A DNA stretch of 64,000 nt from a plasmid. The notes beneath the pieces were generated by a model. It saw only the letters and a program-made list of their open reading frames with translations, did not search any database and was not told the DNA's origin. This document shows, in pieces, positions 11,368-49,428 of this stretch (its first letter is position 1; each line of letters opens with the position of its first letter). The DNA lies in the sequence record NZ_CP145916.1, one strand, 5' to 3'. The translations under genes and the position numbers were made by a program.

Positions 11368-12600
11368 ATGACTGAGAAGCGCGGAACCGGAACAGAGTAT
11401 GGTCAGGATAAGCTGAAAGAAAGAGCAGAAGCCTCTGAGGTGACTGAGGAAAAAAAGCCTAAGTCAAAGCTCAAAATTATTAGCATCGTGGTCATAGCCG
11501 CTATTGGGGTGGGGGCATTGTATCCGGTAGTCTTCGACAGTAAAAAAACACCGGCTGAAAAAAACGAAGAGGTTGTGGCTCTTAATTCAGACGGTACTGC
11601 GATAGGCCCAGTGGTCACTAATGCTGATGATAAAGAGAGCCTGAGTGACTCAAATAAGTCCGTCACCACCGACACGGCCATTGCAGATAAACCTGCTGCC
11701 TCTGAACACAGCGATGCTGATAAACCTGCTGACCCTGAAAATAGCGATGCTGATAAGGCTGCTACTGATAAGGCCGATGCAGGCAACGCTGAACAGCCCG
11801 TTGATCATACCGACCCTGAGCAGATGCTGATGGATATGGCCGCACCTACCAATCCGTCAGTTGAAATTGTCCCTGCCGAGAAGATAGTTTCGGATGCCCA
11901 CAAAGGCAGTCCCGTACCGCAACCTATCGCTCAGAATGTCAGTGACGGATCAGCTGGTATCTCTGACAAACTGGCCCCGGAAGACGTTCAGGGCATTAAG
12001 AATGCCGTTAACCATGACCCGACCGTAAACAACGCCAATCAGCCTGCAAATGAGGCTAATGCTGCTGAGGCCAATGCTGCGCCTAAGTTCAGAACCTTTG
12101 AGCCGTCTAAATTTGGTATTGATAACGTCGCTGCACCGCAACACGTCATTGCTCAACCTTCAGCGCAACCTGCTACTCTTCCGCAGTATGCAGCTACCAA
12201 CAACGCGCCATCTGATAGCCAGAACAGTGACGACGTAATCAAAAACTATACTGGGCAATCAGAAGAAGTTACCTATCAGGTTCAGTCCCAGAATACCGTT
12301 TATGTGTACGGTTCATTTGCTGCAAAAGTTTATCTGTTACCCGTTGGCAAAAATGAAAAGGTCAACGCATATCTTTCTGACTCTAAAGGGTGGCAAATCA
12401 GCCAGCTGCCGGGCGATATTCTTCGTATTCAACGTTCAGCAAACAAGTCGGATTGGAGTGACGCTACTGACCTTTTCCTTGTGGCCGGGAAGCGCACTTA
12501 CACCTTAATCCTGCAAGCAGTTGATCAGCCGAAATTGCGTACTGACAGCCTCCGTTATATGGAGCCTAAAACGCAACCAGCACATACCGGAAAAAAATAA
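11368..12600 (+). CDS. membrane-anchored acidic repeat protein (SDADKPA-type tandem repeats) with a folded C-terminal domain
   Basis: one TM helix at aa 35-55; imperfect ~30-nt tandem repeats at 11690-11790; no family recognised. Confidence 0.5.
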   Translation: MTEKRGTGTEYGQDKLKERAEASEVTEEKKPKSKLKIISIVVIAAIGVGALYPVVFDSKKTPAEKNEEVVALNSDGTAIGPVVTNADDKESLSDSNKSVTTDTAIADKPAASEHSDADKPADPENSDADKAATDKADAGNAEQPVDHTDPEQMLMDMAAPTNPSVEIVPAEKIVSDAHKGSPVPQPIAQNVSDGSAGISDKLAPEDVQGIKNAVNHDPTVNNANQPANEANAAEANAAPKFRTFEPSKFGIDNVAAPQHVIAQPSAQPATLPQYAATNNAPSDSQNSDDVIKNYTGQSEEVTYQVQSQNTVYVYGSFAAKVYLLPVGKNEKVNAYLSDSKGWQISQLPGDILRIQRSANKSDWSDATDLFLVAGKRTYTLILQAVDQPKLRTDSLRYMEPKTQPAHTGKK

Positions 12601-37235: not shown

Positions 37236-38051
37236 TTATTCTGGCTTGTCTTGCTGTTCAGCTTCTAAAACGACTGTCGGATTAGACTGAATTTCTAATT
37301 CCACATCCGTAGTTTCGGCATCGCTAACGGTTTGAACTACAGCAGGAATACCGCTTCCTTCTCGGGAAATAGAAAGACCTTTTTCCTCAAGCTGGGCTAT
37401 AGCATTTTTGGAAAGTTGTTGGATGGTCGCGCTCAGATTTTGGATGCTGCTAGTCAGACGGAACTTAGTGTCTTCAACCTCATCCGCTGGTGCCATCGCA
37501 TTCAAATAGCCTTTATCCAGCAGTGTAATGGCTTTGTCATAACTACTGAACATGCGTAGGACTTTAGTCGCTTCTGGCGTGCGTGTTTTTGTTTCAAATT
37601 CACGCGGGTTCGTATATTTAACCTCGGCAACCTCAATCTCATTTTCTTCTTCCAACATTTTAGTGAGCATTTCAATACAGATATTGATCTCTCTCACCGG
37701 GACATCAATTACCTTATCTATCGCTTTTTTTGCCTCAGCAGCCGCACCACGGATACCCATACGCTCAATGCGTGTGGTGTTGATCATGATATTAAAAAGG
37801 GCTTGAGACACGGGATTAAAATGCCGGGTAAACAGCCGGATGCCTTCTTGTGTCTCTAAGGTTATCTTTAAATCAATTTCCGGGTTAGAGAACGGGGTTT
37901 TTTCCTCACGCCTCCGCCCTCGCCTGACTGGTGGTCGGTCAATACGGTTGTCATTAGCTCCGCCGTTTGGCCTTGTGTTAGAACGGGAATTACCCCTTCT
38001 GTTTGATCTCTGCTTTGGGGTTGCGTTGCCTTGGTTGCTAACATCAGCCAT
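37236..38051 (-). CDS. hypothetical protein with Arg-rich disordered N-terminus (possible DNA-binding/transfer accessory protein)
   Basis: GAGGAAG SD; N-terminal 60 aa rich in R/N/G; acidic C-terminus; adjacent to repeat-rich non-coding region. Confidence 0.5.
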   Translation of the reverse strand: MADVSNQGNATPKQRSNRRGNSRSNTRPNGGANDNRIDRPPVRRGRRREEKTPFSNPEIDLKITLETQEGIRLFTRHFNPVSQALFNIMINTTRIERMGIRGAAAEAKKAIDKVIDVPVREINICIEMLTKMLEEENEIEVAEVKYTNPREFETKTRTPEATKVLRMFSSYDKAITLLDKGYLNAMAPADEVEDTKFRLTSSIQNLSATIQQLSKNAIAQLEEKGLSISREGSGIPAVVQTVSDAETTDVELEIQSNPTVVLEAEQQDKPE

Positions 38052-38159: not shown

Positions 38160-38590
38160 TTGCAGCCATTAACTAACTGGATTAATCTGTTCAGACCTAG
38201 CTGATGGTACTCAGCACAACTTCCAGATATCTATTTGAATATCCTGATAAACTTAGCGTGACCATACCGCACCCACAAAAAGACTCTCTTTTTGATCAGG
38301 ATGTCCTACGCCTGTAAAACGGCAATCCGAGCACTTCCGACATGCTTCCTAGTCCTTTGACTAAGCTTGTCACTTTGCTACCCTTGCGAGGGTATTTTTG
38401 GTTCTCAATCCAAACCAATAAATTGAAACTTCCCATAACTTCCTGTGCGCTACCCGCTACTGTGGCCGGACTTCGTTCTACACGACTCCTTCCTTCTATC
38501 TAAACATACCCCATAACTATGCTTCCTCACGTTGCATGGTGTTTTGGCGTGTTTTTAGTTCTGTGGCCGGACTTCGTACACTTTAACTGT
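38160..38590. repeat. repeat-rich non-coding region (short direct repeats TGTGGCCGGACTTCGT x2, CCCATAACT x2, GCTTCCTCACGTT x2)
   Basis: exact 16-mer at 38461 and 38562; 12-mer at 38054 and 38522; no ORF with RBS. Confidence 0.5.
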
Positions 38591-38607
38591 CTATTAAATA
38601 TATAAGG
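38591..38607 (+). promoter_or_regulatory. island promoter cassette copy 1 (CTATTAAATATATAAGG)
   Basis: member of 11-copy conserved motif upstream of island genes. Confidence 0.4.
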
Positions 38608-38615
38608 TATTAATT

Positions 38616-39293
38616 ATGTTCACTGAAACAATGGCCCTGATCTCTATTGCTATGTTTGCAATGCTGTTATATCGCGTTGAGTACATCCGGTTTTTAGCTC
38701 CACTCTGGATTGTTCTGTTTGTCGTGCTCAGTGGCAGAGCTGTCACCACATATGGTTTCTTTACTATTGTGGTGTTTGCGCTGCTGTTAATAGTATTTGT
38801 CCTCGACGCTATTCGAGTAAGCCGTAAAAAAGCTGAAAAAAATCGCGGAAAAAATGAAGATGATGATTCTGTCTCCATTTTTGACGAAGACGAAGATGAA
38901 AATGAGGATGAAAACTTATCCTCCCTGCCTCGCTTATCTGCCTCTGACGATGAAGAAACACCTAAGCAAAAAACTAAGCCAAAAAGAACCCGAATCACTG
39001 AGTATCAAGGTACTCTGCTGAGTCATGGTTTTGCTCCGTACAACAACATCATCGGTAATGACAAGTCTTACTTTGTTAATTGCGATGGTAAAACTGTTTG
39101 GGGTATCGGCTTAAAAGATGCGATTAAGAACTGTGGCGCTGAAAATGGTGACACTATTCGCTTTTATAAAGAAGGTGAAGTTCGCACCAAAAAAGCCACC
39201 ATTTATGATGATAAGGGAAACAAAACCGGCACACGCAATTTGTCTCAGGACAAACGTCGTGGTGTATGGATTATGGAAGTTGTTTCAGACTAA
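38616..39293 (+). CDS. membrane-anchored protein with acidic DEDEDENEDEN linker
   Basis: 2 TM helices, acidic spacer, C-terminal folded domain. Confidence 0.5.
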   Translation: MFTETMALISIAMFAMLLYRVEYIRFLAPLWIVLFVVLSGRAVTTYGFFTIVVFALLLIVFVLDAIRVSRKKAEKNRGKNEDDDSVSIFDEDEDENEDENLSSLPRLSASDDEETPKQKTKPKRTRITEYQGTLLSHGFAPYNNIIGNDKSYFVNCDGKTVWGIGLKDAIKNCGAENGDTIRFYKEGEVRTKKATIYDDKGNKTGTRNLSQDKRRGVWIMEVVSD

Positions 39294-39420
39294 TTCCTGC
39301 CTAACTCTATTAAATGTACAACATTCTGCCCAGACATTACGTTGGGCACTTAACTTACAAGTGATTGTCTCTGTTCGTTTTTTTTAATGAACAGGCATGA
39401 TCACAACAACCTCCTAAAAA

Positions 39421-39719
39421 CCCGGCCACTGGCTGGGTTTTTTTTTGCCTTGACCAAAGCCACCCTCTCCTTTAATCTTGCTGATGCGGTTAAACCGCCT
39501 AACTTCCGGCTAACGCCCTTAAAGCACCTTTGCAAGCAACTTCGGCCACCAGCCAACCCGAACAAAAAACAGTTTTGTTCTCACGGCTTACTCACGTCTA
39601 TACATACAGATTTCGATAGCCCGATGCCATTCATGGCTTCGGGTTTTTTTGTGCGTCGAGCAAGGTGTTTTTCCTCTTCTGAGGACATCGATGTGTTCAG
39701 GCATCTTCTCCTGAATGTT
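39421..39719 (+). repeat. hairpin-rich non-coding element, copy A (terminator + TTGACC-16-TTAATC promoter + ~190-nt structured segment + second terminator + conserved palindrome)
   Basis: ~85% identical to 44085-44397; reading frame not conserved between copies; compensatory changes in hairpins. Confidence 0.6.
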
Positions 39720-39794
39720 GTTCTTTATTATTTATTAATAAACAACTCCTAATAACCTCTATCAAATTTATTAACTCTATTAAATCTATTAACT

Positions 39795-39820
39795 CTATTA
39801 AATATATCAAATATATAAGG
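39795..39820 (+). promoter_or_regulatory. island promoter cassette copy 2, preceded by TATTAACTC/TATTAAATC tandem units
   Basis: CTATTAAATATATCAAATATATAAGG. Confidence 0.4.
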
Positions 39821-39828
39821 ATACTATC

Positions 39829-40362
39829 ATGTATTACGGAACCCTCGTTTCAGAAGGTGTCATTGATCTCGATGGCTTCACCATACACAACGCTGGCGAA
39901 TGCCCGTCCTGTAATGTTCTTGTCGACCACCGGCTTTATGAAAGCTGCTCGTATGGCTGCTTGAACCAGTGTCGCTCTATCGATTGTCCGGCTTGTGGTT
40001 ATCATTCCTGTGATGATGATTGCTGCTCAGCTTGCCATGCTCGCTCAGTAAAAGAAGAGTCTGAGGAATTGGCTATTTCTTATGGAATAACCAGTAACTC
40101 ACATGCGCTCTTGTTTTTAGCTGATATTGAAACTGAATTAATGATTTTATTTGCAAAGGCTAGAATTGATTTTCCAGACGCTTCTGCTGCTAACGCTGCA
40201 CCCAGAAGTTATATGGAACCAATAACTGACGTAGCCATCCGCTTACACGATTTCCACAAAATGCCCTACTCAGCATTACCTTCTTCAAAAGAAATTGTTT
40301 CCGTTTCATCCAGCCTCTTGAATGACATTTATATTCATCTTGGCTGGCCTGATGGTTTTTAA
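39829..40362 (+). CDS. Cys-rich (putative zinc-binding) hypothetical protein
   Basis: 13 Cys in residues 25-70 (CPSC...CSYGC...CRSIDCPACGYHSCDDDCCSAC). Confidence 0.5.
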   Translation: MYYGTLVSEGVIDLDGFTIHNAGECPSCNVLVDHRLYESCSYGCLNQCRSIDCPACGYHSCDDDCCSACHARSVKEESEELAISYGITSNSHALLFLADIETELMILFAKARIDFPDASAANAAPRSYMEPITDVAIRLHDFHKMPYSALPSSKEIVSVSSSLLNDIYIHLGWPDGF

Positions 40363-40380
40363 CTCATCCTTATTATCTTC

Positions 40381-40407
40381 CATAAATATATAAACTTATC
40401 GCGAGGT
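40381..40407 (+). promoter_or_regulatory. island promoter cassette copy 3
   Basis: CATAAATATATAAACTTATCGCGAGGT. Confidence 0.4.
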
Positions 40408-40414
40408 ACATATT

Positions 40415-41242
40415 ATGTTCTCTAAAGCCACTTTAATTGGTGTTGTCGGTCTTGAACCAAAATACAAACGCGCTGCTAATGGCAAAAAATCTGTAATTGC
40501 TTTTCGCATCGGTTGTGACGTATTAACAACATCCAAAAAAATAACTGAATGGTATTCAGTTAAGGCTTTTGGCTCTGTTGCTGATGATTTAATTAAGCAT
40601 ATAAAGGAAGGTTCAAATGTGTACCTCGAAGCCTCCATACGTTCAAGACGTTGGATCGCTGGTGGTGTTGAACGACATGGCATGGAATTTCATGCTTTTG
40701 TCGCACGCGTTATGCCTGAGCCTGTTGTCACTCATCATTCTCAAGCTGAAACGCTCTCTGCACCTCACTCTGATGCAAGTCTTACCTTAGCCTTACCCTT
40801 CCCAGAAGATGAGGCTATTGTTAATGCTCCTGTACCAGCTCAGTCCATCCAGCCAGCTCATTCTGAAAAGCCCAAACAGCCGTCTTCTCCGAAACCAAAG
40901 GAGTTAACTGCTGATGAAGCTCGTCAGGCTGGTTCACGTTTTCGTCAAATATTTGAAAGTCATAAACAACGTATCGCTGATTTAGCTACAGCTGCGCCTG
41001 CAACGGATGATCCTGCCCCTTTAAATCAAAGTAAGGCAATCGGTTTATCTGTTCAGCCTCCAGCTCCAGCTAATACACGTAAACTGCTCATTAAACATTG
41101 TAAATCTCCATCCTCTACGGAATTCCTCAGCACTGGAAATCCACACACGGATGCTCTGTTAAATGCTCGTAACGCATTAATCAGACCAGTAGATAACAAT
41201 GTAAATGAAATGGCAGGTTACGCGCATATTCGCGGAGATTAG
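40415..41242 (+). CDS. ssb: single-stranded DNA-binding protein (OB fold) with long low-complexity tail
   Basis: N-terminal ~110 aa align to SSB core (KITEWYSVKAFG...GSNVYLEASIRSRRW...FHAFVARVM); no canonical DDDIPF tail. Confidence 0.65.
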   Translation: MFSKATLIGVVGLEPKYKRAANGKKSVIAFRIGCDVLTTSKKITEWYSVKAFGSVADDLIKHIKEGSNVYLEASIRSRRWIAGGVERHGMEFHAFVARVMPEPVVTHHSQAETLSAPHSDASLTLALPFPEDEAIVNAPVPAQSIQPAHSEKPKQPSSPKPKELTADEARQAGSRFRQIFESHKQRIADLATAAPATDDPAPLNQSKAIGLSVQPPAPANTRKLLIKHCKSPSSTEFLSTGNPHTDALLNARNALIRPVDNNVNEMAGYAHIRGD

Positions 41243-41269
41243 TGAATGTTATTCACTTTAATCCGAAGC

Positions 41270-41302
41270 CAATGAAGCCACTCCCTGAGTGGCTTCGGCT
41301 TT
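41270..41302 (+). terminator. intrinsic terminator
   Basis: GAAGCCACTCCCTGAGTGGCTTCGGCTTTT. Confidence 0.65.
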
Positions 41303-41320
41303 TATATGTCAGTGTTAAAT

Positions 41321-41342
41321 TTATTAAATATATTAAATAAGG
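41321..41342 (+). promoter_or_regulatory. island promoter cassette copy 4
   Basis: TTATTAAATATATTAAATAAGG. Confidence 0.4.
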
Positions 41343-41350
41343 AATCTATC

Positions 41351-42883
41351 ATGGCTTACAACAATCAAAGTCGCAGCTCATACGATAATAAAAGTAACAG
41401 TAAAAAAGACACCAAAGCTAACCCGATGGTATTGCTTGATACTGCTACTCGACATCTCGTTACACTCGAAAAAGAGTTTACTGTTGCAGCATCGTGGAAC
41501 CCCTCTCTTTCCTTTGCGAAAGAAAGTGTTTTTGCGAAAAATGTAATAAACAACAATTCGTACCTCACTGAATTGGCTGTACAGAACCCGCAGTCATTTG
41601 GAACTGCTTTCCTCCAACTGGCTACAAGCGGCCTCTCACTTGATCCAGCCCTTAAACTGGCTTATCTAGTGCCTAGAATGGGTCGTGTTTTTCTCGATGT
41701 GTCTTACATTGGTCTAAGTCGTCTGGCTACCGATGAAGGGCTCTGTCAGGATATTGTTGTAGAGTTAGTCTTTACTGATGATTCCTTTAAATCTAATGGT
41801 CGTCGTCAAAGCCCTGAACACAGTTTCGATCCCTTCGCTGATAAAGGCCCGCTCCTTCTGACTTCAGAAGAAGAGAAGGCTTATACCGGTGAACGTCCAA
41901 GAGGTGTTTTTCGTGGCGTATATGTCGATTATCAAATGAAGGATGGCCGTAATCTCGTTTACTTCCTTACGAGACAAGAATTAGCAGCCGCTCGTTCTGT
42001 CTCAGATTCATGGAAAAAAACAGAAAAACGCGCACAATCTCCGTGGACAACATTTCCGTGGCAAATGGTAAGAAAGTCGGCTATTAAGCAGACTATCCAC
42101 CAGATCCCCGGTAATCGCACGCGTGTTGCTACCATTATCGATTATCTTAACAAAGATGGCGGTGAAGGTTTCCGTGACACAAATGCTACTCCACTCCAGT
42201 CTGCCCAATATGAAATGTCTGCTCGTCAAGCAGCTGCAAATCATGATGTTCAGCCTGAAAACTCAGAACAACAACCTGTCTCATCTGGAAATGTTTACGA
42301 GGGACAAGTTGTTACCCCTGAACCTCAGCAGACACAAACTGATGTACAGCACAAACCCGCGTCACAGGCATCAGAAGAACCTCAGCCACCCCATGCAGCT
42401 CAAAATTCTGAGTCTACAGATGGTGCTCAGGCAATGTCTGATATTCCCGGTGTCCGTGTTTATGCACAAAGACGCATCGCAAAAATCATTAAACGCGCCA
42501 GCATTCAAATGGCTTTTGAAACGTCAATATCTGTTATCAAAACTGAATTTGAATTTAATGAAACTGAAATTGCGTATGGTCTTCGCTTAATAGAGGAATC
42601 GCGCCGTAATATTCTTCAAGCAAAGTTAATACTTGGCATAGAGAATAATGACTATAGCGAACTTGATAAATTTCTTGGAAAACTTGCCGTTTGTGAATTC
42701 AAGACTAAATCTCTTGAGTTTACTCAGGAAATCAGAGCAATAGCTGATGACCTGCACGCTCTTTATGAAGCGGCTAAAGAAACCAACAACTTCACTGCAT
42801 TTTACTCCACGCTAGAAACCGTCACTTTCAATCCACTGCGAAAGTATTGGGATGGAATTATTGCGTCGGAAAAAGCAGCTTAA
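41351..42883 (+). CDS. recT: RecT/Bet-family single-strand annealing protein
   Basis: RecT core pattern FLQLATSGLSLDP...AYLVPRMG...YIGLSRL; long acidic/Q-rich C-terminal extension. Confidence 0.7.
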   Translation: MAYNNQSRSSYDNKSNSKKDTKANPMVLLDTATRHLVTLEKEFTVAASWNPSLSFAKESVFAKNVINNNSYLTELAVQNPQSFGTAFLQLATSGLSLDPALKLAYLVPRMGRVFLDVSYIGLSRLATDEGLCQDIVVELVFTDDSFKSNGRRQSPEHSFDPFADKGPLLLTSEEEKAYTGERPRGVFRGVYVDYQMKDGRNLVYFLTRQELAAARSVSDSWKKTEKRAQSPWTTFPWQMVRKSAIKQTIHQIPGNRTRVATIIDYLNKDGGEGFRDTNATPLQSAQYEMSARQAAANHDVQPENSEQQPVSSGNVYEGQVVTPEPQQTQTDVQHKPASQASEEPQPPHAAQNSESTDGAQAMSDIPGVRVYAQRRIAKIIKRASIQMAFETSISVIKTEFEFNETEIAYGLRLIEESRRNILQAKLILGIENNDYSELDKFLGKLAVCEFKTKSLEFTQEIRAIADDLHALYEAAKETNNFTAFYSTLETVTFNPLRKYWDGIIASEKAA

Positions 42884-42887
42884 ACAT

Positions 42888-42910
42888 AACCGGCTAATTT
42901 AGCCGGTTTT
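42888..42910 (+). terminator. intrinsic terminator
   Basis: AACCGGCTAATTTAGCCGGTTTT. Confidence 0.65.
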
Positions 42911-42938
42911 CTATTAAATATATAAACTTATCGAAGGT
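42911..42938 (+). promoter_or_regulatory. island promoter cassette copy 5
   Basis: CTATTAAATATATAAACTTATCGAAGGT. Confidence 0.4.
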
Positions 42939-42945
42939 AAATATC

Positions 42946-44073
42946 ATGGATTCAGTAATGGTTGTAGTTGATTGTGAACAAGGTACTCCCGAATGGCTTG
43001 AATGGCGTAAAAGTGGTGTTACCGCGACCTGCTCACCTATCTTGATGGGATCAGAAAGCGCACTAAAAACGCCGTATCAGTTATACCTACAGTATGTTGG
43101 CCTGCTTGCACCAGAAGACCTTTCCGCTATCAAACAAGTTCGTGCTGGGAATCTTAATGAACCCCTTGCTCGCGCTTGGGCCGAAAGAAAATATGGGCAA
43201 ATTAGCCTGCCTCTGTGTGTTAGTCATCGTGATTATCCCTACATGATCGCCTCACTGGACGGTCAGTTTGATGACGGGTATTTACTGGAGATAAAAAATC
43301 TTTCTGCACAAAAGCATTTGGATATTCTGAAACTTAAAAATAATTCGCCAGACTTTAAATACTATTACTGGCAAGTTCAGCACCAGCTCTTCGTTACTGG
43401 AGCGCCCGGTGCTTATCTTCTGTTTTGGTCAGCTAAAGATGAGCCAGTCGTGTTTAAGCTCCTTCCAAATCCCAAGGCCCATGACGAATTACTTCGTCGT
43501 GGAACTGATTTTTGGAACGGTGTTCAAAACAAGGTTGCCCCACCTTTTGACAAGACAAAAGATGTTTTGCTTATTTCAGATGCTGAGATCGTAAAACAAA
43601 CTCCCGGCTTTACTGTTCCCGATGACCTCGCTGTTCGTGTTGCTAACCTTAGCAATCACTCTAAGGCATTGGAAAAAGCTAAAGCAGAAGTTGAACGTCT
43701 CGACAAGTTAACAAAGGCGCACCTTTCTGGCCTTGCTGACGCGTTGGGCTTTCTTCCTGATGACCTTATCCGTCTCGACGGTTTCGGTGTCAGGTATGTT
43801 GAAAGTATCTCCAAAGGTGCGACCAATTGGAAAAGCCTTGCGTACAAGCTTGATCCTAATCTTGTCCCTGAGCAACATCCCGATTGCGTCAATAACGAAA
43901 AAAGAACCTCTCGGTTGACTAATTACGAGTACGTGCCCACATCATCGGACACAATACCTGTGATTGTCCCTGATAGTGTACAGAACGCTTCTTCTGCTGT
44001 TATTCAACAAGCACAAGACGCCTCTAGTGATACTGATAGCCTCAGTGTCTCAGGCGGTGTAACGCTGTTCTAA
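42946..44073 (+). CDS. exo: YqaJ-type (lambda-Exo-like) recombination exonuclease
   Basis: N-terminal QGTPEWLEWRKSGVTATCSPILMGSESALKTPYQLY pattern of YqaJ domain; partner of recT. Confidence 0.65.
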   Translation: MDSVMVVVDCEQGTPEWLEWRKSGVTATCSPILMGSESALKTPYQLYLQYVGLLAPEDLSAIKQVRAGNLNEPLARAWAERKYGQISLPLCVSHRDYPYMIASLDGQFDDGYLLEIKNLSAQKHLDILKLKNNSPDFKYYYWQVQHQLFVTGAPGAYLLFWSAKDEPVVFKLLPNPKAHDELLRRGTDFWNGVQNKVAPPFDKTKDVLLISDAEIVKQTPGFTVPDDLAVRVANLSNHSKALEKAKAEVERLDKLTKAHLSGLADALGFLPDDLIRLDGFGVRYVESISKGATNWKSLAYKLDPNLVPEQHPDCVNNEKRTSRLTNYEYVPTSSDTIPVIVPDSVQNASSAVIQQAQDASSDTDSLSVSGGVTLF

Positions 44074-44084
44074 CCCCACATTAA

Positions 44085-44397
44085 CCCTGCTTCGGCAGGG
44101 TTTTTTTTTGCCTTGACCAATTACTGCATCTCAATTAATCTAGTGCTTGCGGTTAATCCGCCTGCGGTTAAACCGCCTAACTTCCGGCTAACGCCCTTAA
44201 AGCACCTTGATAAGCAACTTCGGCCACCAAGCCAACCCGAACAAAAACAGTTTTTGTTCTCACGGCTTCTTCACGTCTATACATACAGAATTCGATAGCC
44301 CGGTGCCTTTAAGGCTTCGGGTTTTTTTGTGCGTCGAACAAGGTGTTTTTCCTCTACTGAGGATACAAGTGTGTTCAGGCACTTTCTCCTGAATGTT
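44085..44397 (+). repeat. hairpin-rich non-coding element, copy B
   Basis: see copy A; promoter geometry TTGACC-16-TTAATC conserved although spacer sequence differs. Confidence 0.6.
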
Positions 44398-44402
44398 TTA
44401 TC

Positions 44403-44420
44403 CATTAAATATATTAAATC
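44403..44420 (+). promoter_or_regulatory. island promoter cassette copy 6
   Basis: CATTAAATATATTAAATC. Confidence 0.35.
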
Positions 44421-44454
44421 ATATTAAATCATATCAAATCTATCTGGAGTCAAC

Positions 44455-44835
44455 ATGGCTAAGTACATCAACCTAACAACCTATCGCGCAAGCCCTTCTC
44501 AGCGTGAATTAGGTGTTATTGATATCAATGGGAATATTGCATCTGCTCTGTCAGAGTTGCTTTCTTTTCATTTTGCGCCACAAAAAGGTGAAATGTTGGT
44601 AAAGGCAAATTCTATTGCTGATATCGCTTATAACCTGAGTGTCGAAAACGAAACGCCTAACGTTTTAATTAACGCTAAAGCCTTTTTCATTCCCACTCTC
44701 GTTGCAGCCTTGCAGTCCCGAGGTCTTGTACCTTTTTATACATTTGCTCAACGTTCCACAACCGTCAAAGACGGCACTGTTTTAGAAAAGACGTATATTC
44801 ACAAGAATATTGTTGAATGTTCGCCTGAAATTTAA
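44455..44835 (+). CDS. hypothetical protein
   Basis: GGAG SD; no family recognised. Confidence 0.5.
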   Translation: MAKYINLTTYRASPSQRELGVIDINGNIASALSELLSFHFAPQKGEMLVKANSIADIAYNLSVENETPNVLINAKAFFIPTLVAALQSRGLVPFYTFAQRSTTVKDGTVLEKTYIHKNIVECSPEI

Positions 44836-44878
44836 CAGTTAGACTCCATAATTTATTAACTCTATTAACTCTATCAAA

Positions 44879-44904
44879 TCTATTAAATATATAAACTTAT
44901 AAGG
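44879..44904 (+). promoter_or_regulatory. island promoter cassette copy 7, preceded by TATTAACTC tandem units
   Basis: CTATTAAATATATAAACTTATAAGGT. Confidence 0.4.
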
Positions 44905-45944: not shown

Positions 45945-46016
45945 TCCCTGCCTTATCCGCTTCACCCCCTTCTGCACAAAACCTATGAGCGCATTTATTT
46001 GCGCTCCATAAACTTT

Positions 46017-46043
46017 CTATTAAATATATAAATATATCGAGGT
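46017..46043 (+). promoter_or_regulatory. island promoter cassette copy 8
   Basis: CTATTAAATATATAAATATATCGAGGT. Confidence 0.4.
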
Positions 46044-46048
46044 CTAAA

Positions 46049-47485: not shown

Positions 47486-47515
47486 AAAAGGCCCAATTTA
47501 TGGGCCATTTTTTTA
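47486..47515 (+). terminator. intrinsic terminator
   Basis: AAAAAGGCCCAATTTATGGGCCATTTTTTT. Confidence 0.7.
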
Positions 47516-47517
47516 AT

Positions 47518-47548
47518 CATTTAAATATATAAATTTATCTATCGAGGT
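47518..47548 (+). promoter_or_regulatory. island promoter cassette copy 9
   Basis: CATTTAAATATATAAATTTATCTATCGAGGT. Confidence 0.4.
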
Positions 47549-47554
47549 TTACTA

Positions 47555-49381
47555 ATGGGTATATACAATTCACTCCCGATTGTGGCGCGTGCTCTTGGTG
47601 ATCAACTTAACATTGATGTTACTGTTGGTGGCTCTGATGCGTATGCTTCTGTTTCAAATGGTAAGGCTCTTATCAACATTCCGTATTATAAGAATGCTGA
47701 TGATTTGTCTGATGCTTTACTGGGTTTTACTGTGCATGAAGCCGCTCACATTCGATTTACTGAGTTTGATTTGTTCCAGCCTGCTCTTAATGGGTTAGCT
47801 GGTCAGTCAGTCGAAGTTAAGGATGAGTTTGGCTCTCTGGTCGCTTCTGGTCGCTATAACAAGAAGGTGCTCCACTCTCTCTGGAATATCGCTGAGGATT
47901 TACGCATTGAACGTTCAATGGTGCGTATTTATCCCGGCACTATCCGTTTTCTTCAAGCTGTACGCAGTTTTGTTTTTGACGGTAAGTATGACGCGAGTGA
48001 TGTACCTGCTGTGATTTATCTGGATACTATGCTTCTTTGTGGTCGCCAGCGTTATCACGGCTTTGATACTCACGCTGATGTACGTCGCAATGAGTTCATA
48101 TCTGTGTTTGGTCAGGAATTACTGGAAAAGTCTCTTGATATTCTGGGTTTAGCTGTCTTCGCGGATACTACTCTCGGATGTCTTGATGTCGCCCGGCAGT
48201 TATATGACCTCGCTATAGATGCTTTTGAAAAGAAAGATGATGATGAGGATAATACCCCGTCCCCGTCCAATTCTGATCAAAACGATAACTCATCTGGTGA
48301 TTCTGATAGTTCTAACGATTCTGCTGATGGTTCTGATGATTCTAATAGCCCTAATGGCTCTGACGATTCTGATAGTTCTAATGCTGGTTCTGATGACTCT
48401 GCTGATGATGCTGATAATGATGCCTCCGGTTCATCTGGAAGCTCTGACGGTAAACCTGATAGCACAGATTCACCATCATCCTGTTCAATAAACTCTGACC
48501 CGTTCGCTGATGCTGACGATGCTGATATAGATCGCGCCGCAAAAGATATTTCGGACAAGTTTAATGACATGATGAAAGACAAATTAACGCCTTCGCAACG
48601 TAAGGATCGTGTTGAACCTTTCTCTGTAACTCCCGGCAAGACTTTCTCCACTGGAAATGCCAGTGTCACTCGTGGCATAGCTGGTTCCGCTGGTTTACGT
48701 CAGTCTCTTAATGGATTGTTACAAGGGATGCAACACACTCGTCGAACGCATAAAGAGTACGGTCATAAAATTGATGGGCGATTACTGGGTACTGTCTTAA
48801 CTGGCAATACCAAGATTTTCAAACACAAGTCTAAAACTGTTGCTCTGAACTCTGCATTTACCATCCTGCTAGATTCCAGTAGCTCTATGAGTGGAAGCAT
48901 TACTGAGGCCGAAGCTGCGGTTGTTTCATTGCTATATGCACTTGATAACCTGCCCGGCGTAACAACCTCTGCTTATCACTTTCCTCATACCACTAGAAAC
49001 TCAGTTGGTAAATTAAAAGACCGCAAGCAAACTCTGCGTCAAGCCATTGCTGCTAACCATTTCGGTATCCACACGACAGGCTCTACGCCTCTCAGTGGTG
49101 CTTTATGGCCCGCAATAGTTGACTTGGCCGTAGAGAAAGCTGACCAACGTATCTTGATTGTTTGTACTGATGGCGAACCTGATTCTAAGGAAGACGTTAT
49201 TCAAATGATTAATGATGCAAAATCTGACGGTATGGTTGTTATAGGTATTGGTTTCGGTTCTGTGAGCCAATCCTCAATGACCCGCATTTTCGGTAGTACA
49301 GGCATTTGCATTGGCAGTCTTGTTCATTTACGTACAAAACTGTTTGATGTGACCCGCGCCATATTAACGAATCGCAAATAA
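47555..49381 (+). CDS. von Willebrand factor A domain protein (CobT-like partner of the AAA ATPase)
   Basis: MIDAS motif TILLDSSSSMSG; acidic Ser/Asp-rich linker; C-terminal VCTDGEPD. Confidence 0.65.
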   Translation: MGIYNSLPIVARALGDQLNIDVTVGGSDAYASVSNGKALINIPYYKNADDLSDALLGFTVHEAAHIRFTEFDLFQPALNGLAGQSVEVKDEFGSLVASGRYNKKVLHSLWNIAEDLRIERSMVRIYPGTIRFLQAVRSFVFDGKYDASDVPAVIYLDTMLLCGRQRYHGFDTHADVRRNEFISVFGQELLEKSLDILGLAVFADTTLGCLDVARQLYDLAIDAFEKKDDDEDNTPSPSNSDQNDNSSGDSDSSNDSADGSDDSNSPNGSDDSDSSNAGSDDSADDADNDASGSSGSSDGKPDSTDSPSSCSINSDPFADADDADIDRAAKDISDKFNDMMKDKLTPSQRKDRVEPFSVTPGKTFSTGNASVTRGIAGSAGLRQSLNGLLQGMQHTRRTHKEYGHKIDGRLLGTVLTGNTKIFKHKSKTVALNSAFTILLDSSSSMSGSITEAEAAVVSLLYALDNLPGVTTSAYHFPHTTRNSVGKLKDRKQTLRQAIAANHFGIHTTGSTPLSGALWPAIVDLAVEKADQRILIVCTDGEPDSKEDVIQMINDAKSDGMVVIGIGFGSVSQSSMTRIFGSTGICIGSLVHLRTKLFDVTRAILTNRK

Positions 49382-49393
49382 ATACCTAACTAT

Positions 49394-49420
49394 CTATTAA
49401 ATATATTAAATATATCAAGG
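49394..49420 (+). promoter_or_regulatory. island promoter cassette copy 10
   Basis: CTATTAAATATATTAAATATATCAAGG. Confidence 0.4.
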
Positions 49421-49428
49421 ACTATTAA

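Follow-up and report, generated by a model that had tools for sequence, protein, structure and literature searches.

Two copies of a structured, non-coding cassette lie at 39416-39715 and 44083-44393 of a 64,000-nucleotide (nt) stretch of plasmid DNA (record NZ_CP145916.1; the whole stretch is referred to as the window), the first ahead of orf221-ssb-recT-exo and the second ahead of orf225 and genes for a MoxR ATPase, a DUF3150 protein and a VWA-domain protein. By blastn, 39421-39719 matches plasmid Rts1 of Proteus vulgaris (NC_003905.1), which is classed as IncT, MOBH and MPF_F, at 100% identity. Copy 1 is also 100% identical in four other IncT plasmids of Providencia and Escherichia, and copy 2 is identical in three of these four, the exception being pCHS4.1-2. 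In the RefSeq Rts1 record, the VWA gene is interrupted by a copy of the insertion sequence IS2. The window lacks this copy and is thus an IS2-free Rts1-type sequence in which the VWA-domain gene (47555-49381, 608 aa) is intact; the 1,331-bp IS2 of the RefSeq record (NC_003905.1 169699-171029 region) would sit at window position 48224/48225. The genes orf221-ssb-recT-exo correspond to the 'hde' host-defence-evasion genes of IncC plasmids. Deletion of recT or exo in Rts1 lowers conjugation approximately 70-fold (PMC10838148), and ssb-bet-exo of the related IncC and SXT elements allows incoming plasmids to survive restriction and cleavage by clustered regularly interspaced short palindromic repeat (CRISPR) systems (PMC7498323). 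In SXT and IncC, the whole gene array forms one SetCD/AcaCD-dependent operon (PMC4344509, PMC4542580, PMC7498323).

The two copies are 84-87% identical over approximately 300 nt, which bears out the figure of about 85% given in an earlier reading of the sequence (the original prediction). Comparison of copy 1 with copy 2 by blastn gave 84.3% identity over 306 aligned bases, a MAFFT alignment gave 83% column identity, and the repeat-finder families D4-D6 and D8 span both copies. A covariance model of the family finds exactly two copies in the approximately 92 kb of Rts1-type sequence formed by the window and the stretch that continues to the origin of transfer (oriT). The open reading frames (ORFs) downstream of the two copies, orf221 and orf225, were compared as possible paralogues and show no similarity, and so only the non-coding cassette was duplicated and not a block of genes.

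RefSeq annotates a 'hypothetical protein' of 121 aa (WP_176455173.1, 39387-39752) that overlaps copy 1, and the region might accordingly be read as a protein-coding or decayed gene, given that the ORF is open in copy 1 and that the same nominal frame contains few stops in several lineages. The frame is broken, however, in copy 2 and, when relatives were checked, in the other lineages; the indels are not multiples of three, and substitutions fall evenly over the codon positions (for example 32/27/26 and 14/12/18), with no codon periodicity. The ORFs annotated here lie on differing strands in different plasmids, the overlapping ORF would have to cross a terminator, a promoter and a second terminator, and it has no Pfam match; Pfam and PHROGs searches with this ORF and the flanking small ORFs gave nothing useful. 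The annotation is probably spurious, and a coding origin can be set aside as hardly credible, in keeping with the original prediction, which had called the element non-coding because its reading frames differ between copies.

The anatomy of the cassette was established on 20 unique variants in seven lineages, and its coordinates are collected in Table 1. Each copy opens with an intrinsic terminator, Term0, which was detected by a terminator scan as a hairpin with a T-run (39416-39442 and 44083-44102) and whose stem covaries among plasmids (CCCGGCC/GGCTGGG, CCCTGC/GCAGGG, CCCAGC/GCTGGG, CCCGAC/GTCGGG). Term0 is followed by a predicted sigma70-type promoter. The original prediction had placed this promoter as TTGACC-16-TTAATC; the TTGACC hexamer stands at 39450 and 44113, whereas the remainder is re-registered as a 17-nt spacer followed by TAATCT. 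The -35 hexamer and the 17-nt spacing are invariant, while the spacer itself occurs as seven different sequences, so that its length is kept and its sequence is free, as had been claimed. The -10 hexamer varies across lineages between TAATCT, TACTCT, TATTGT and TATCTT (TAnnnT), with A2 and T6 always kept. The pattern TTGACC-N17-TANTNT-N5-9-GCG occurs only in the two copies in 64 kb, against 0.01 occurrences expected.

Downstream of the promoter, the hairpins and the palindrome that the original prediction had listed are all present (the latter, TTCAGG...CCTGAA, at 39696-39715), and the helices carry compensatory changes. The stem of hairpin P1 shows G-C to A-U compensation and its loop sequence is free, and it appears to behave as expected of a generic 5'-terminal protective hairpin. 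The 15-nt P1 unit (TGCGGTTAAnCCGCC) forms a short tandem repeat that can expand at the 5' end of the predicted RNA: copy 1 has a single unit and copy 2 has two, and in pCHS4.1-2 copy 2 has three (L055 10193-10260). The adjoining single-stranded segment CUAACUUCCGGC is nearly invariant in all lineages, and the mini-hairpin beside it is present in the minimum-energy fold of every lineage. Hairpin P3 has double-sided changes in six of its seven pairs, and TTCGA in the next single-stranded segment, ss2, is invariant across the alignment. The second terminator, T, is also present, although a simple scan missed its stem because of a conserved internal mismatch; four pairs of the stem show double-sided changes, a single position occurs as A-U, G.U, G-C, U.G and C-G, and the U-tract is found in all lineages.

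Conservation does not end at T. The segments L2b and L1b are invariant despite their position downstream of the terminator, and are followed by the P5 hairpin, which shows C-G to U-A compensation and which is exchanged in one lineage for an unrelated hairpin (GUUGUC/GACAAC) at an unchanged position. Beyond P5, two interleaved stems, S1 and S2, have the order S1a-L1-S2a-S1b-L3-S2b with a gap of zero between S2a and S1b in all 20 variants. Both stems are compensated, S1 being AGUG/CACU, or GAUG/CAUC in copy 1, which amounts to two compensated pairs. This topology is a candidate for either an H-type pseudoknot or two mutually exclusive hairpins. The 15-nt tandem duplication, the long-range helix described below, P5, the stem interleaved with the palindrome and the conservation across some 135 plasmids were not part of the original prediction.

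Table 1. Features of the two cassette copies and of the surrounding gene array (window coordinates; for genes given by a single position, that position is listed)
Feature	Position	Strand	Sequence, basis or remark
Copy 1: Term0	39416-39449	+	upstream intrinsic terminator, predicted to end orf219/220 transcription; terminator scan, stem covariation
Copy 1: sigma70-type promoter	39450-39478	+	predicted; -35 TTGACC, 17-nt spacer, -10 TAATCT
Copy 1: P1	39486-39498	+	5'-terminal hairpin GCGG/CCGC (GCGGTTAAACCGC), 6-7 nt past -10
Copy 1: ss1	39499-39521	+	conserved single-stranded CUAACUUCCGGC and mini-hairpin GGC-N4-GCC (3 bp)
Copy 1: helix L, 5' strands	39522-39549	+	L1a AAGCACC, L2a TTCGGCCAC; RNAalifold, folds, inverted repeat I10
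Copy 1: P2 enclosing P3	39552-39587	+	P2 GCC/GGC; P3 at 39560-39580, GAACAAAA...TTTTGTTC
Copy 1: ss2	39588-39618	+	conserved single strand ending AUUUCGAUA (copy 2: AAUUCGAUA)
Copy 1: T	39619-39650	+	internal intrinsic terminator GCCCGATGCC...GGCTTCGGGT+T6; 10-pair stem, conserved internal mismatch, U6-7
Copy 1: helix L, 3' strands	39651-39672	+	L2b GTGCGTCGAG, L1b GGTGTTTTT
Copy 1: P5	39673-39684	+	hairpin CCTC/GAGG
Copy 1: S1 and S2	39690-39715	+	interleaved stems GATG/CATC and TTCAGG/CCTGAA; candidate H-type pseudoknot
Copy 1: AT-rich 9-nt repeat array and Shine-Dalgarno	39716-39828	+	before orf221 (39829); repeat families D1, D2
Copy 2: Term0	44083-44112	+	after exo
Copy 2: promoter	44113-44141	+	predicted; TTGACC-17-TAATCT
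Copy 2: tandem P1 hairpins	44149-44176	+	two 15-nt units
Copy 2: ss1 to T	44177-44328	+	ss1; L1a/L2a 44200-44227; P2/P3 44231-44266; ss2; T and U-run 44298-44328
Copy 2: L2b/L1b to S1/S2	44329-44393	+	L2b/L1b 44329-44350; P5 44351-44362; S1/S2 pseudoknot candidate 44368-44393
Copy 2: AT-rich repeats and Shine-Dalgarno	44394-44454	+	before orf225 (44455)
traC-trhF-traW-traU			upstream end of local gene order
acaB/s063-like gene	37236-38051	-	
orf219	38616-39293		directly upstream of copy 1
orf221	39829		between copy 1 and copy 2
ssb	40415		between copy 1 and copy 2
recT	41306		between copy 1 and copy 2
exo	42946		between copy 1 and copy 2
orf225	44455		downstream of copy 2
MoxR ATPase gene	44913		downstream of copy 2
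DUF3150 gene	46049		downstream of copy 2
VWA protein gene	47555		downstream of copy 2
AU-rich motif sites	38583-38620, 39747-39828, 40371-40408, 41300-41345, 42903-42940, 44394-44440, 44832-44904, 46009-46046, 47510-47551, 49395-49428		ahead of genes of the array

Consensus folding of 12 sequences with RNAalifold recovered P1, P3 and T, together with an unexpected helix in which UUCGGCCAC, upstream of P3, pairs with GUGCGUCGAA, past the U-run. The fold of a 242-nt copy-1 RNA adds the pairing of AAAGCACCUU with AAGGUGUUUU to this helix (z = -4.2), and the whole matches the inverted repeats I10 and I5. The resulting long-range helix, L, comprises approximately 20 bp (39522-49 with 39651-72) and encloses both hairpin P3 and terminator T. 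Separate minimum-energy folds of nine divergent variants give the same architecture, with z between -3.4 and -6.3. Helix L shows a C-G to U-A swap in Providencia B copies, a matched 2-nt co-insertion (CAGC with GCUG) in Providencia A copies, and G.U to A-U and U-A to U.G changes, in addition to an invariant G.U in L2. In the model-based alignment of 19 distinct sequences, 97.1% of pairing cells can pair, against 35-45% when the partners are slid, double-sided changes occur in 15 of the 37 modelled pairs, and none of 500 shuffles equals any of the observed covariation measures. Wobbles number 36 G.U cells against 9 A.C cells, which places the fold on the + strand, the strand in whose sense the promoter, both terminators and the flanking genes also run.

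The original prediction had left room for a single-stranded DNA (ssDNA) element that would fold on the transferred strand in the recipient, either as a promoter of the Frpo type or as a single-strand initiation (ssi) priming site. Frpo and related ssDNA promoters in the leading regions of IncF and IncI plasmids are large stem-loops that rebuild -35 and -10 elements by intrastrand pairing (PMC11541004, PMC12672017). The cassette resembles them in being intergenic and rich in hairpins and in preceding ssb and anti-defence-type genes on a conjugative plasmid, and its downstream genes match those that IncC needs on entry to a new host (PMC7498323); DNA hairpins would, moreover, covary in the same way, and the - strand also folds below shuffled controls (z -2.6). 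The promoter, however, is of the ordinary contiguous duplex type: neither 39450-39478 nor 44113-44141 has an inverted partner, and the promoter is unpaired in the - strand DNA fold, so that no duplex -35/-10 is rebuilt. In place of a single long stem-loop there are many short helices, 305 nt of the - strand reaching -45.7 kcal/mol against a hairpin screen of <-75 kcal/mol. The wobbles speak for the + strand, but the + strand genes have the - strand as their template; neither the 17-nt spacer of fixed length nor the U/T-run that follows a hairpin would serve any purpose in priming. The oriT of Rts1 is located between orf251 and mobI (PMC10838148), and in the IS2-free sequence approximately 21-25 kb, including traF/H/G, traN and setCD, separate it from the copies; the label of a 'leading-region-like island' is thus not established, and an ssDNA element is very unlikely.

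A protein-binding site in duplex DNA was also considered for the conserved palindrome. The P6 palindrome, taken as a shared DNA operator, has no other occurrence in the approximately 92 kb of Rts1-type sequence, and the interleaved stems are hard to reconcile with a protein operator.

The same two-copy arrangement is found in approximately 135 related MOBH plasmids that fall into seven sequence lineages, 57-60% identical at the extreme. By blastn, both copies occupy the same two syntenic positions in 56 PLSDB plasmids, at 100% identity in the Rts1 type, approximately 82% in a Klebsiella/Citrobacter/Serratia/E. coli group and approximately 70% in Providencia/Moellerella/Proteus/Morganella groups. 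All blastn hits of the element fall within Rts1-type MOBH plasmids. A more divergent Enterobacter/Citrobacter lineage (E = 1e-37, 5e-30) came to light when Exo was used in a tblastn search and the covariance model was then applied; approximately 81 more plasmids carry the Citrobacter/Enterobacter-type copy B, the same search also showing a group at 80-90% identity, both positions having been confirmed in the one plasmid of this lineage that was examined (L056). The original prediction had proposed covariance-model searches of Rfam and other replicons; the model helped to bring out this one further lineage, and Rfam gave no family match. When 185,579 genomes and the JGI metagenomes were scanned for the pattern, only close relatives and zero new lineages came up, apart from GC-rich chance matches in Morganella psychrotolerans, one metagenome-assembled genome and two metagenome contigs. 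Among the 12 regions for which annotation was read, predicted resistance genes (floR, aph, sul2) are found only in pM2-1.

The covariance model found no copy in an IncC plasmid, pCAR1 or pPp47, and neither blastn nor the model detected homology of the cassette to IncC sequence. In pPp47, IncC and pCAR1, which are related more distantly, the genes are kept, the intergenic gaps are short and the cassette is absent. The cassette thus looks to be an addition in one sub-clade of the SXT/IncC/IncT superfamily, inserted twice into an operon that is continuous elsewhere. Between Rts1 and the Klebsiella lineage, the cassette is 84% (copy A) and 82% (copy B) identical, against 66-82% for genes; between Rts1 and the Providencia lineage, it is 74% (A) and 69% (B) identical, against 52-71% for genes. 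In nucleotide identity, the cassette stands above all the flanking genes compared, including traU, recT and exo, and it is under strong selection.

Identity between the two copies of one plasmid is 87% in Rts1 and 97-99% in Klebsiella-group plasmids (L002, L005, L052, L053), but only 58-65% in the Providencia and Enterobacter lineages. The Klebsiella-group copies are thus 97-99% alike and yet only approximately 82% identical to those of Rts1. The pattern indicates lineage-specific gene conversion between copies that flank recombination genes. A further reading is that the copies are no more than DNA repeats, serving Bet/Exo single-strand-annealing repair or gene conversion, or arising by neutral duplication. 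As direct repeats that flank recT/exo and are homogenised in two lineages, they recall rptI-IV of IncC, conserved intergenic direct repeats with palindromes in the same superfamily, through which CRISPR-induced breaks are repaired (PMC7498323). Unlike rptI-IV, however, the cassette copies keep their structure down to 58% identity and carry promoter and terminator signals. Recombination between the copies would delete ssb-recT-exo, copies of 58-65% identity (Providencia, Enterobacter) are a poor annealing substrate and yet keep their helices by compensation, and the conservation of the cassette lies above that of coding genes. This reading is, if anything, slightly more remote than that of an ssDNA element.

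Searches of the whole window against Rfam 15 at gathering thresholds gave no match, and searches of the element at E<=10 gave terminator-like chance matches only and no riboswitch. Literature searches on Rts1 and RNA terms yielded no description of the cassette, and a recent systematic deletion study of Rts1 treats ORFs only. The cassette represents a new RNA family, although its general kind is known: a structured leader, an attenuator or a small RNA (sRNA). Its predicted layout is unusual in placing a terminator inside a long-range helix, in having a pseudoknot-like element past the terminator and in being packaged as a duplicated terminator-promoter-leader unit.

The reading that we prefer, to which we give a probability of about one half, is that the cassette is a promoter with a structured leader or attenuator RNA, and that it places two operons, orf221-ssb-recT-exo and orf225-MoxR-DUF3150-VWA, under one cis-acting control at the RNA level. 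Term0 would stop upstream transcription and so would insulate the cassette from SetCD-driven transcription, and the TTGACC-17-TAATCT promoter would restart it. The new transcript would open with a structured leader of approximately 230 nt, followed by an AU-rich translation-initiation region and the first gene. Much of this transcription would stop by default at T, giving an RNA of approximately 165 nt from copy 1 and approximately 180 nt from copy 2, whereas polymerases that pass T would make the full leader, which alone can form the long-range helix. T would then be an attenuator that works conditionally, or a checkpoint at which a factor for antitermination or processing intervenes, and the long-range helix may create an RNase III site, lock the leader or serve as a scaffold for a factor; the two operons would be controlled jointly.

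Several observations favour a promoter with a leader. A structured RNA with an intrinsic terminator lies between the predicted promoter and the first gene, in the same orientation, and in all seven lineages the cassette stands directly ahead of the same two operons, in operon orientation. Conserved, paired and covarying sequence runs for approximately 65 nt past the U-run (L2b, L1b, P5, S1/S2). A functional read-through RNA is implied, because helix L needs sequence from beyond T and because P5 and S1/S2 also lie there. Terminator-like hairpins occur in almost every intergenic gap of the array (19 found against 6.6 expected, 38-46 kb), and such a terminator-rich array fits control by terminator read-through. 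Relatives offer precedents for control by leader structure, with reports of a translational attenuator upstream of bet in SXT (PMC4542580) and of a leader structure that sequesters the ribosome-binding site upstream of vcrx089 in IncC (PMC7498323).

Other points weigh against a promoter with an attenuating leader. Promoter activity, the start site, termination at T, control in cis and the trans-acting factor or signal are all read from sequence. With 3-4 of 6 matches, the -10 hexamer is weak, and a consensus promoter scan did not list it; a duplex sigma70 promoter is taken as real because of the conserved pattern of -35, spacing and -10, and not because of its raw consensus score. No conserved pairing that would act as an antiterminator against T was found, the candidate in Rts1, AACCCGAA with TTCGGGTT, being absent elsewhere; T could accordingly be regulated only kinetically or through a factor, and factor-dependent processive antitermination would need no such pairing. 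No antitermination protein or ligand was identified for the cassette. Helix L cannot decide termination, because it forms only after T has been transcribed. The covariation statistics are inflated by the relatedness of the sequences and by the fitting of the alignment to the model, and part of the conservation past the terminator could reflect operator or promoter sequence at the DNA level.

The same promoter and terminator could instead delimit an sRNA gene present in two paralogous copies, constitutively expressed, the product being a stable RNA of approximately 165-180 nt that acts in trans. In this case, the single-stranded CUAACUUCCGGC and AAYUUCGGCCAC may pair with plasmid or host mRNAs or may titrate an RNA-binding protein, and a role in cis may coexist. 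The predicted signals do bound a non-coding transcript of sRNA size, P1 resembles a 5' stabiliser in its conserved stem and free loop, and the single-stranded motifs hardly vary. In Rts1 (87%) and Klebsiella (97-99%) the copies are homogenised, as if the same RNA were needed, which fits control in cis equally. In addition, the orf219 leader region has two occurrences of GTGGCCGGACTT, a sequence almost complementary to AACTTCGGCCAC of the element. Conservation and structure are not confined to a transcript that ends at T, however: just past T, the same molecule holds perfect covarying partners of L1a and L2a, which would be exposed in such an RNA, and beyond T come also P5 and the pseudoknot candidate. 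A gene with two terminators, inserted twice, would cut the operon off unless read-through were designed in. Complementarity to trans targets in the window is near chance level, with no convincing conserved target; tiling of the window with RNAduplex gave unrealistically long duplexes, was uninformative and was discarded. The stand-alone sRNA of the original prediction is thus upheld in its promoter and terminator, for predicted transcripts of approximately 165 and 180 nt, but is incomplete as a description, since conserved pairing continues past the terminator. A trans-acting sRNA is possible, with perhaps half the weight of a promoter with a cis-acting leader.

A bolder form of leader control, which we regard as speculative and put somewhat below a trans-acting sRNA, is that the leader belongs to a new class of sensing RNA, either riboswitch-like or a site at which an antitermination or processing factor, of the plasmid or of the host, is loaded. 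On entry to a new cell it would switch on both establishment/anti-defence operons, with the terminator in its helix and the pseudoknot forming a decision and read-out module. If this were true, a clinically important group of plasmids would have a coordinated establishment and anti-defence switch. More generally, the same undescribed, strongly conserved cassette stands ahead of both the ssb-recT-exo and the MoxR/VWA operons in Rts1-type, Klebsiella, Citrobacter/Enterobacter and Providencia plasmids. If it times the expression of both, it would add a new regulatory layer to plasmid establishment, and the RNA would count as a new family whose layout, with a long-range helix around a terminator, is unusual.

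The surrounding array has further features of its own. GC-rich, terminator-like hairpins, several with T-runs, lie at 41273-41297, 42888-42908, approximately 45985-46010 and approximately 47488-47515, and the intercistronic hairpins of the ssb-recT-exo-MoxR-DUF3150-VWA array may be terminators controlled by read-through or stabilisers of mRNA 3' ends. An AU-rich motif, (C)TATTAAATATATAA..TATCGAGGT-N7-9-ATG, precedes almost every + strand gene of the array and is often expanded into arrays of 9-nt units (TATTAAATC / TATTAACTC). It is found 27 times on the + strand of the window against 4 times on the - strand, occurs in homologous plasmids too, and resembles either an enhancer of translation initiation that these genes have in common or the binding site of a regulator that recognises RNA or DNA. 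Between the divergent acaB-like gene and orf219, a region that is the counterpart of the SetCD-activated s063/s089 region of SXT, CTGTGGCCGGACTTCGT occurs twice, at 38460-38476 and 38561-38577, 101 nt apart. Weak colinear 8-12-mers (TAACTTCC, TCTAAACATAC, GCTTCCTCACGT, GGTGTTTT), obtained with an over-permissive short-word blast, are common to the region upstream of orf219 and the element, a hint of a degenerate relative of the element or of a trans-pairing site. Providencia A copies have approximately 90 extra nt between the element and ssb (L004/L006/L007 ~12230-12340), with two hairpins (GCCTATTGG..CCAATTAAGGC and GGCC-TCTCTC-GGCC) that are absent from Rts1.

Among known systems, the operon control of SXT/R391 and IncC shares with the cassette its ssb-bet-exo neighbourhood and post-transcriptional control based on RNA structure (PMC4542580, PMC7498323); there, however, short structures lie within a single SetCD/AcaCD-driven operon, whereas the cassette splits the operon by terminator-promoter units. 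Terminator-type riboswitches and leader attenuators, such as T-boxes and metabolite riboswitches, some of which are processed by RNase III (PMC7913692), likewise combine a structured 5' leader and an intrinsic terminator ahead of an operon with covarying helices and a pseudoknot-like element. The cassette differs from these in having neither a conserved antiterminator nor an Rfam riboswitch match, and in placing its terminator inside a long-range helix and not at the 3' end of the leader.

Antitermination RNAs that act in cis, namely putL and putR of HK022 and nutL and nutR of lambda, are present in two copies per genome. A put site has approximately 70 nt and two stem-loops, and a nut site consists of boxA and a boxB hairpin with a conserved loop. 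The cassette resembles them in layout, as two similar promoter-proximal RNA elements, each downstream of its own promoter, that lie upstream of terminators and head two operons; its P1 loop is free, its RNA has approximately 230 nt, and there is no sequence or Rfam similarity. The late-gene switch of lambda consists of the promoter pR', a 194-nt 6S transcript, the terminator tR' and antitermination by Q. For the cassette, no Q-like protein or qut site was identified, and the spacer, where the Q site of lambda lies, is unconserved; the leader is elaborately structured, with conserved structure also past the terminator, and there are two copies per replicon. As in pR'-6S-tR', however, a strong intrinsic terminator comes within approximately 170-190 nt of a promoter that looks constitutive, a long array of genes with more terminators lies downstream, and a short terminated RNA is the predicted default.

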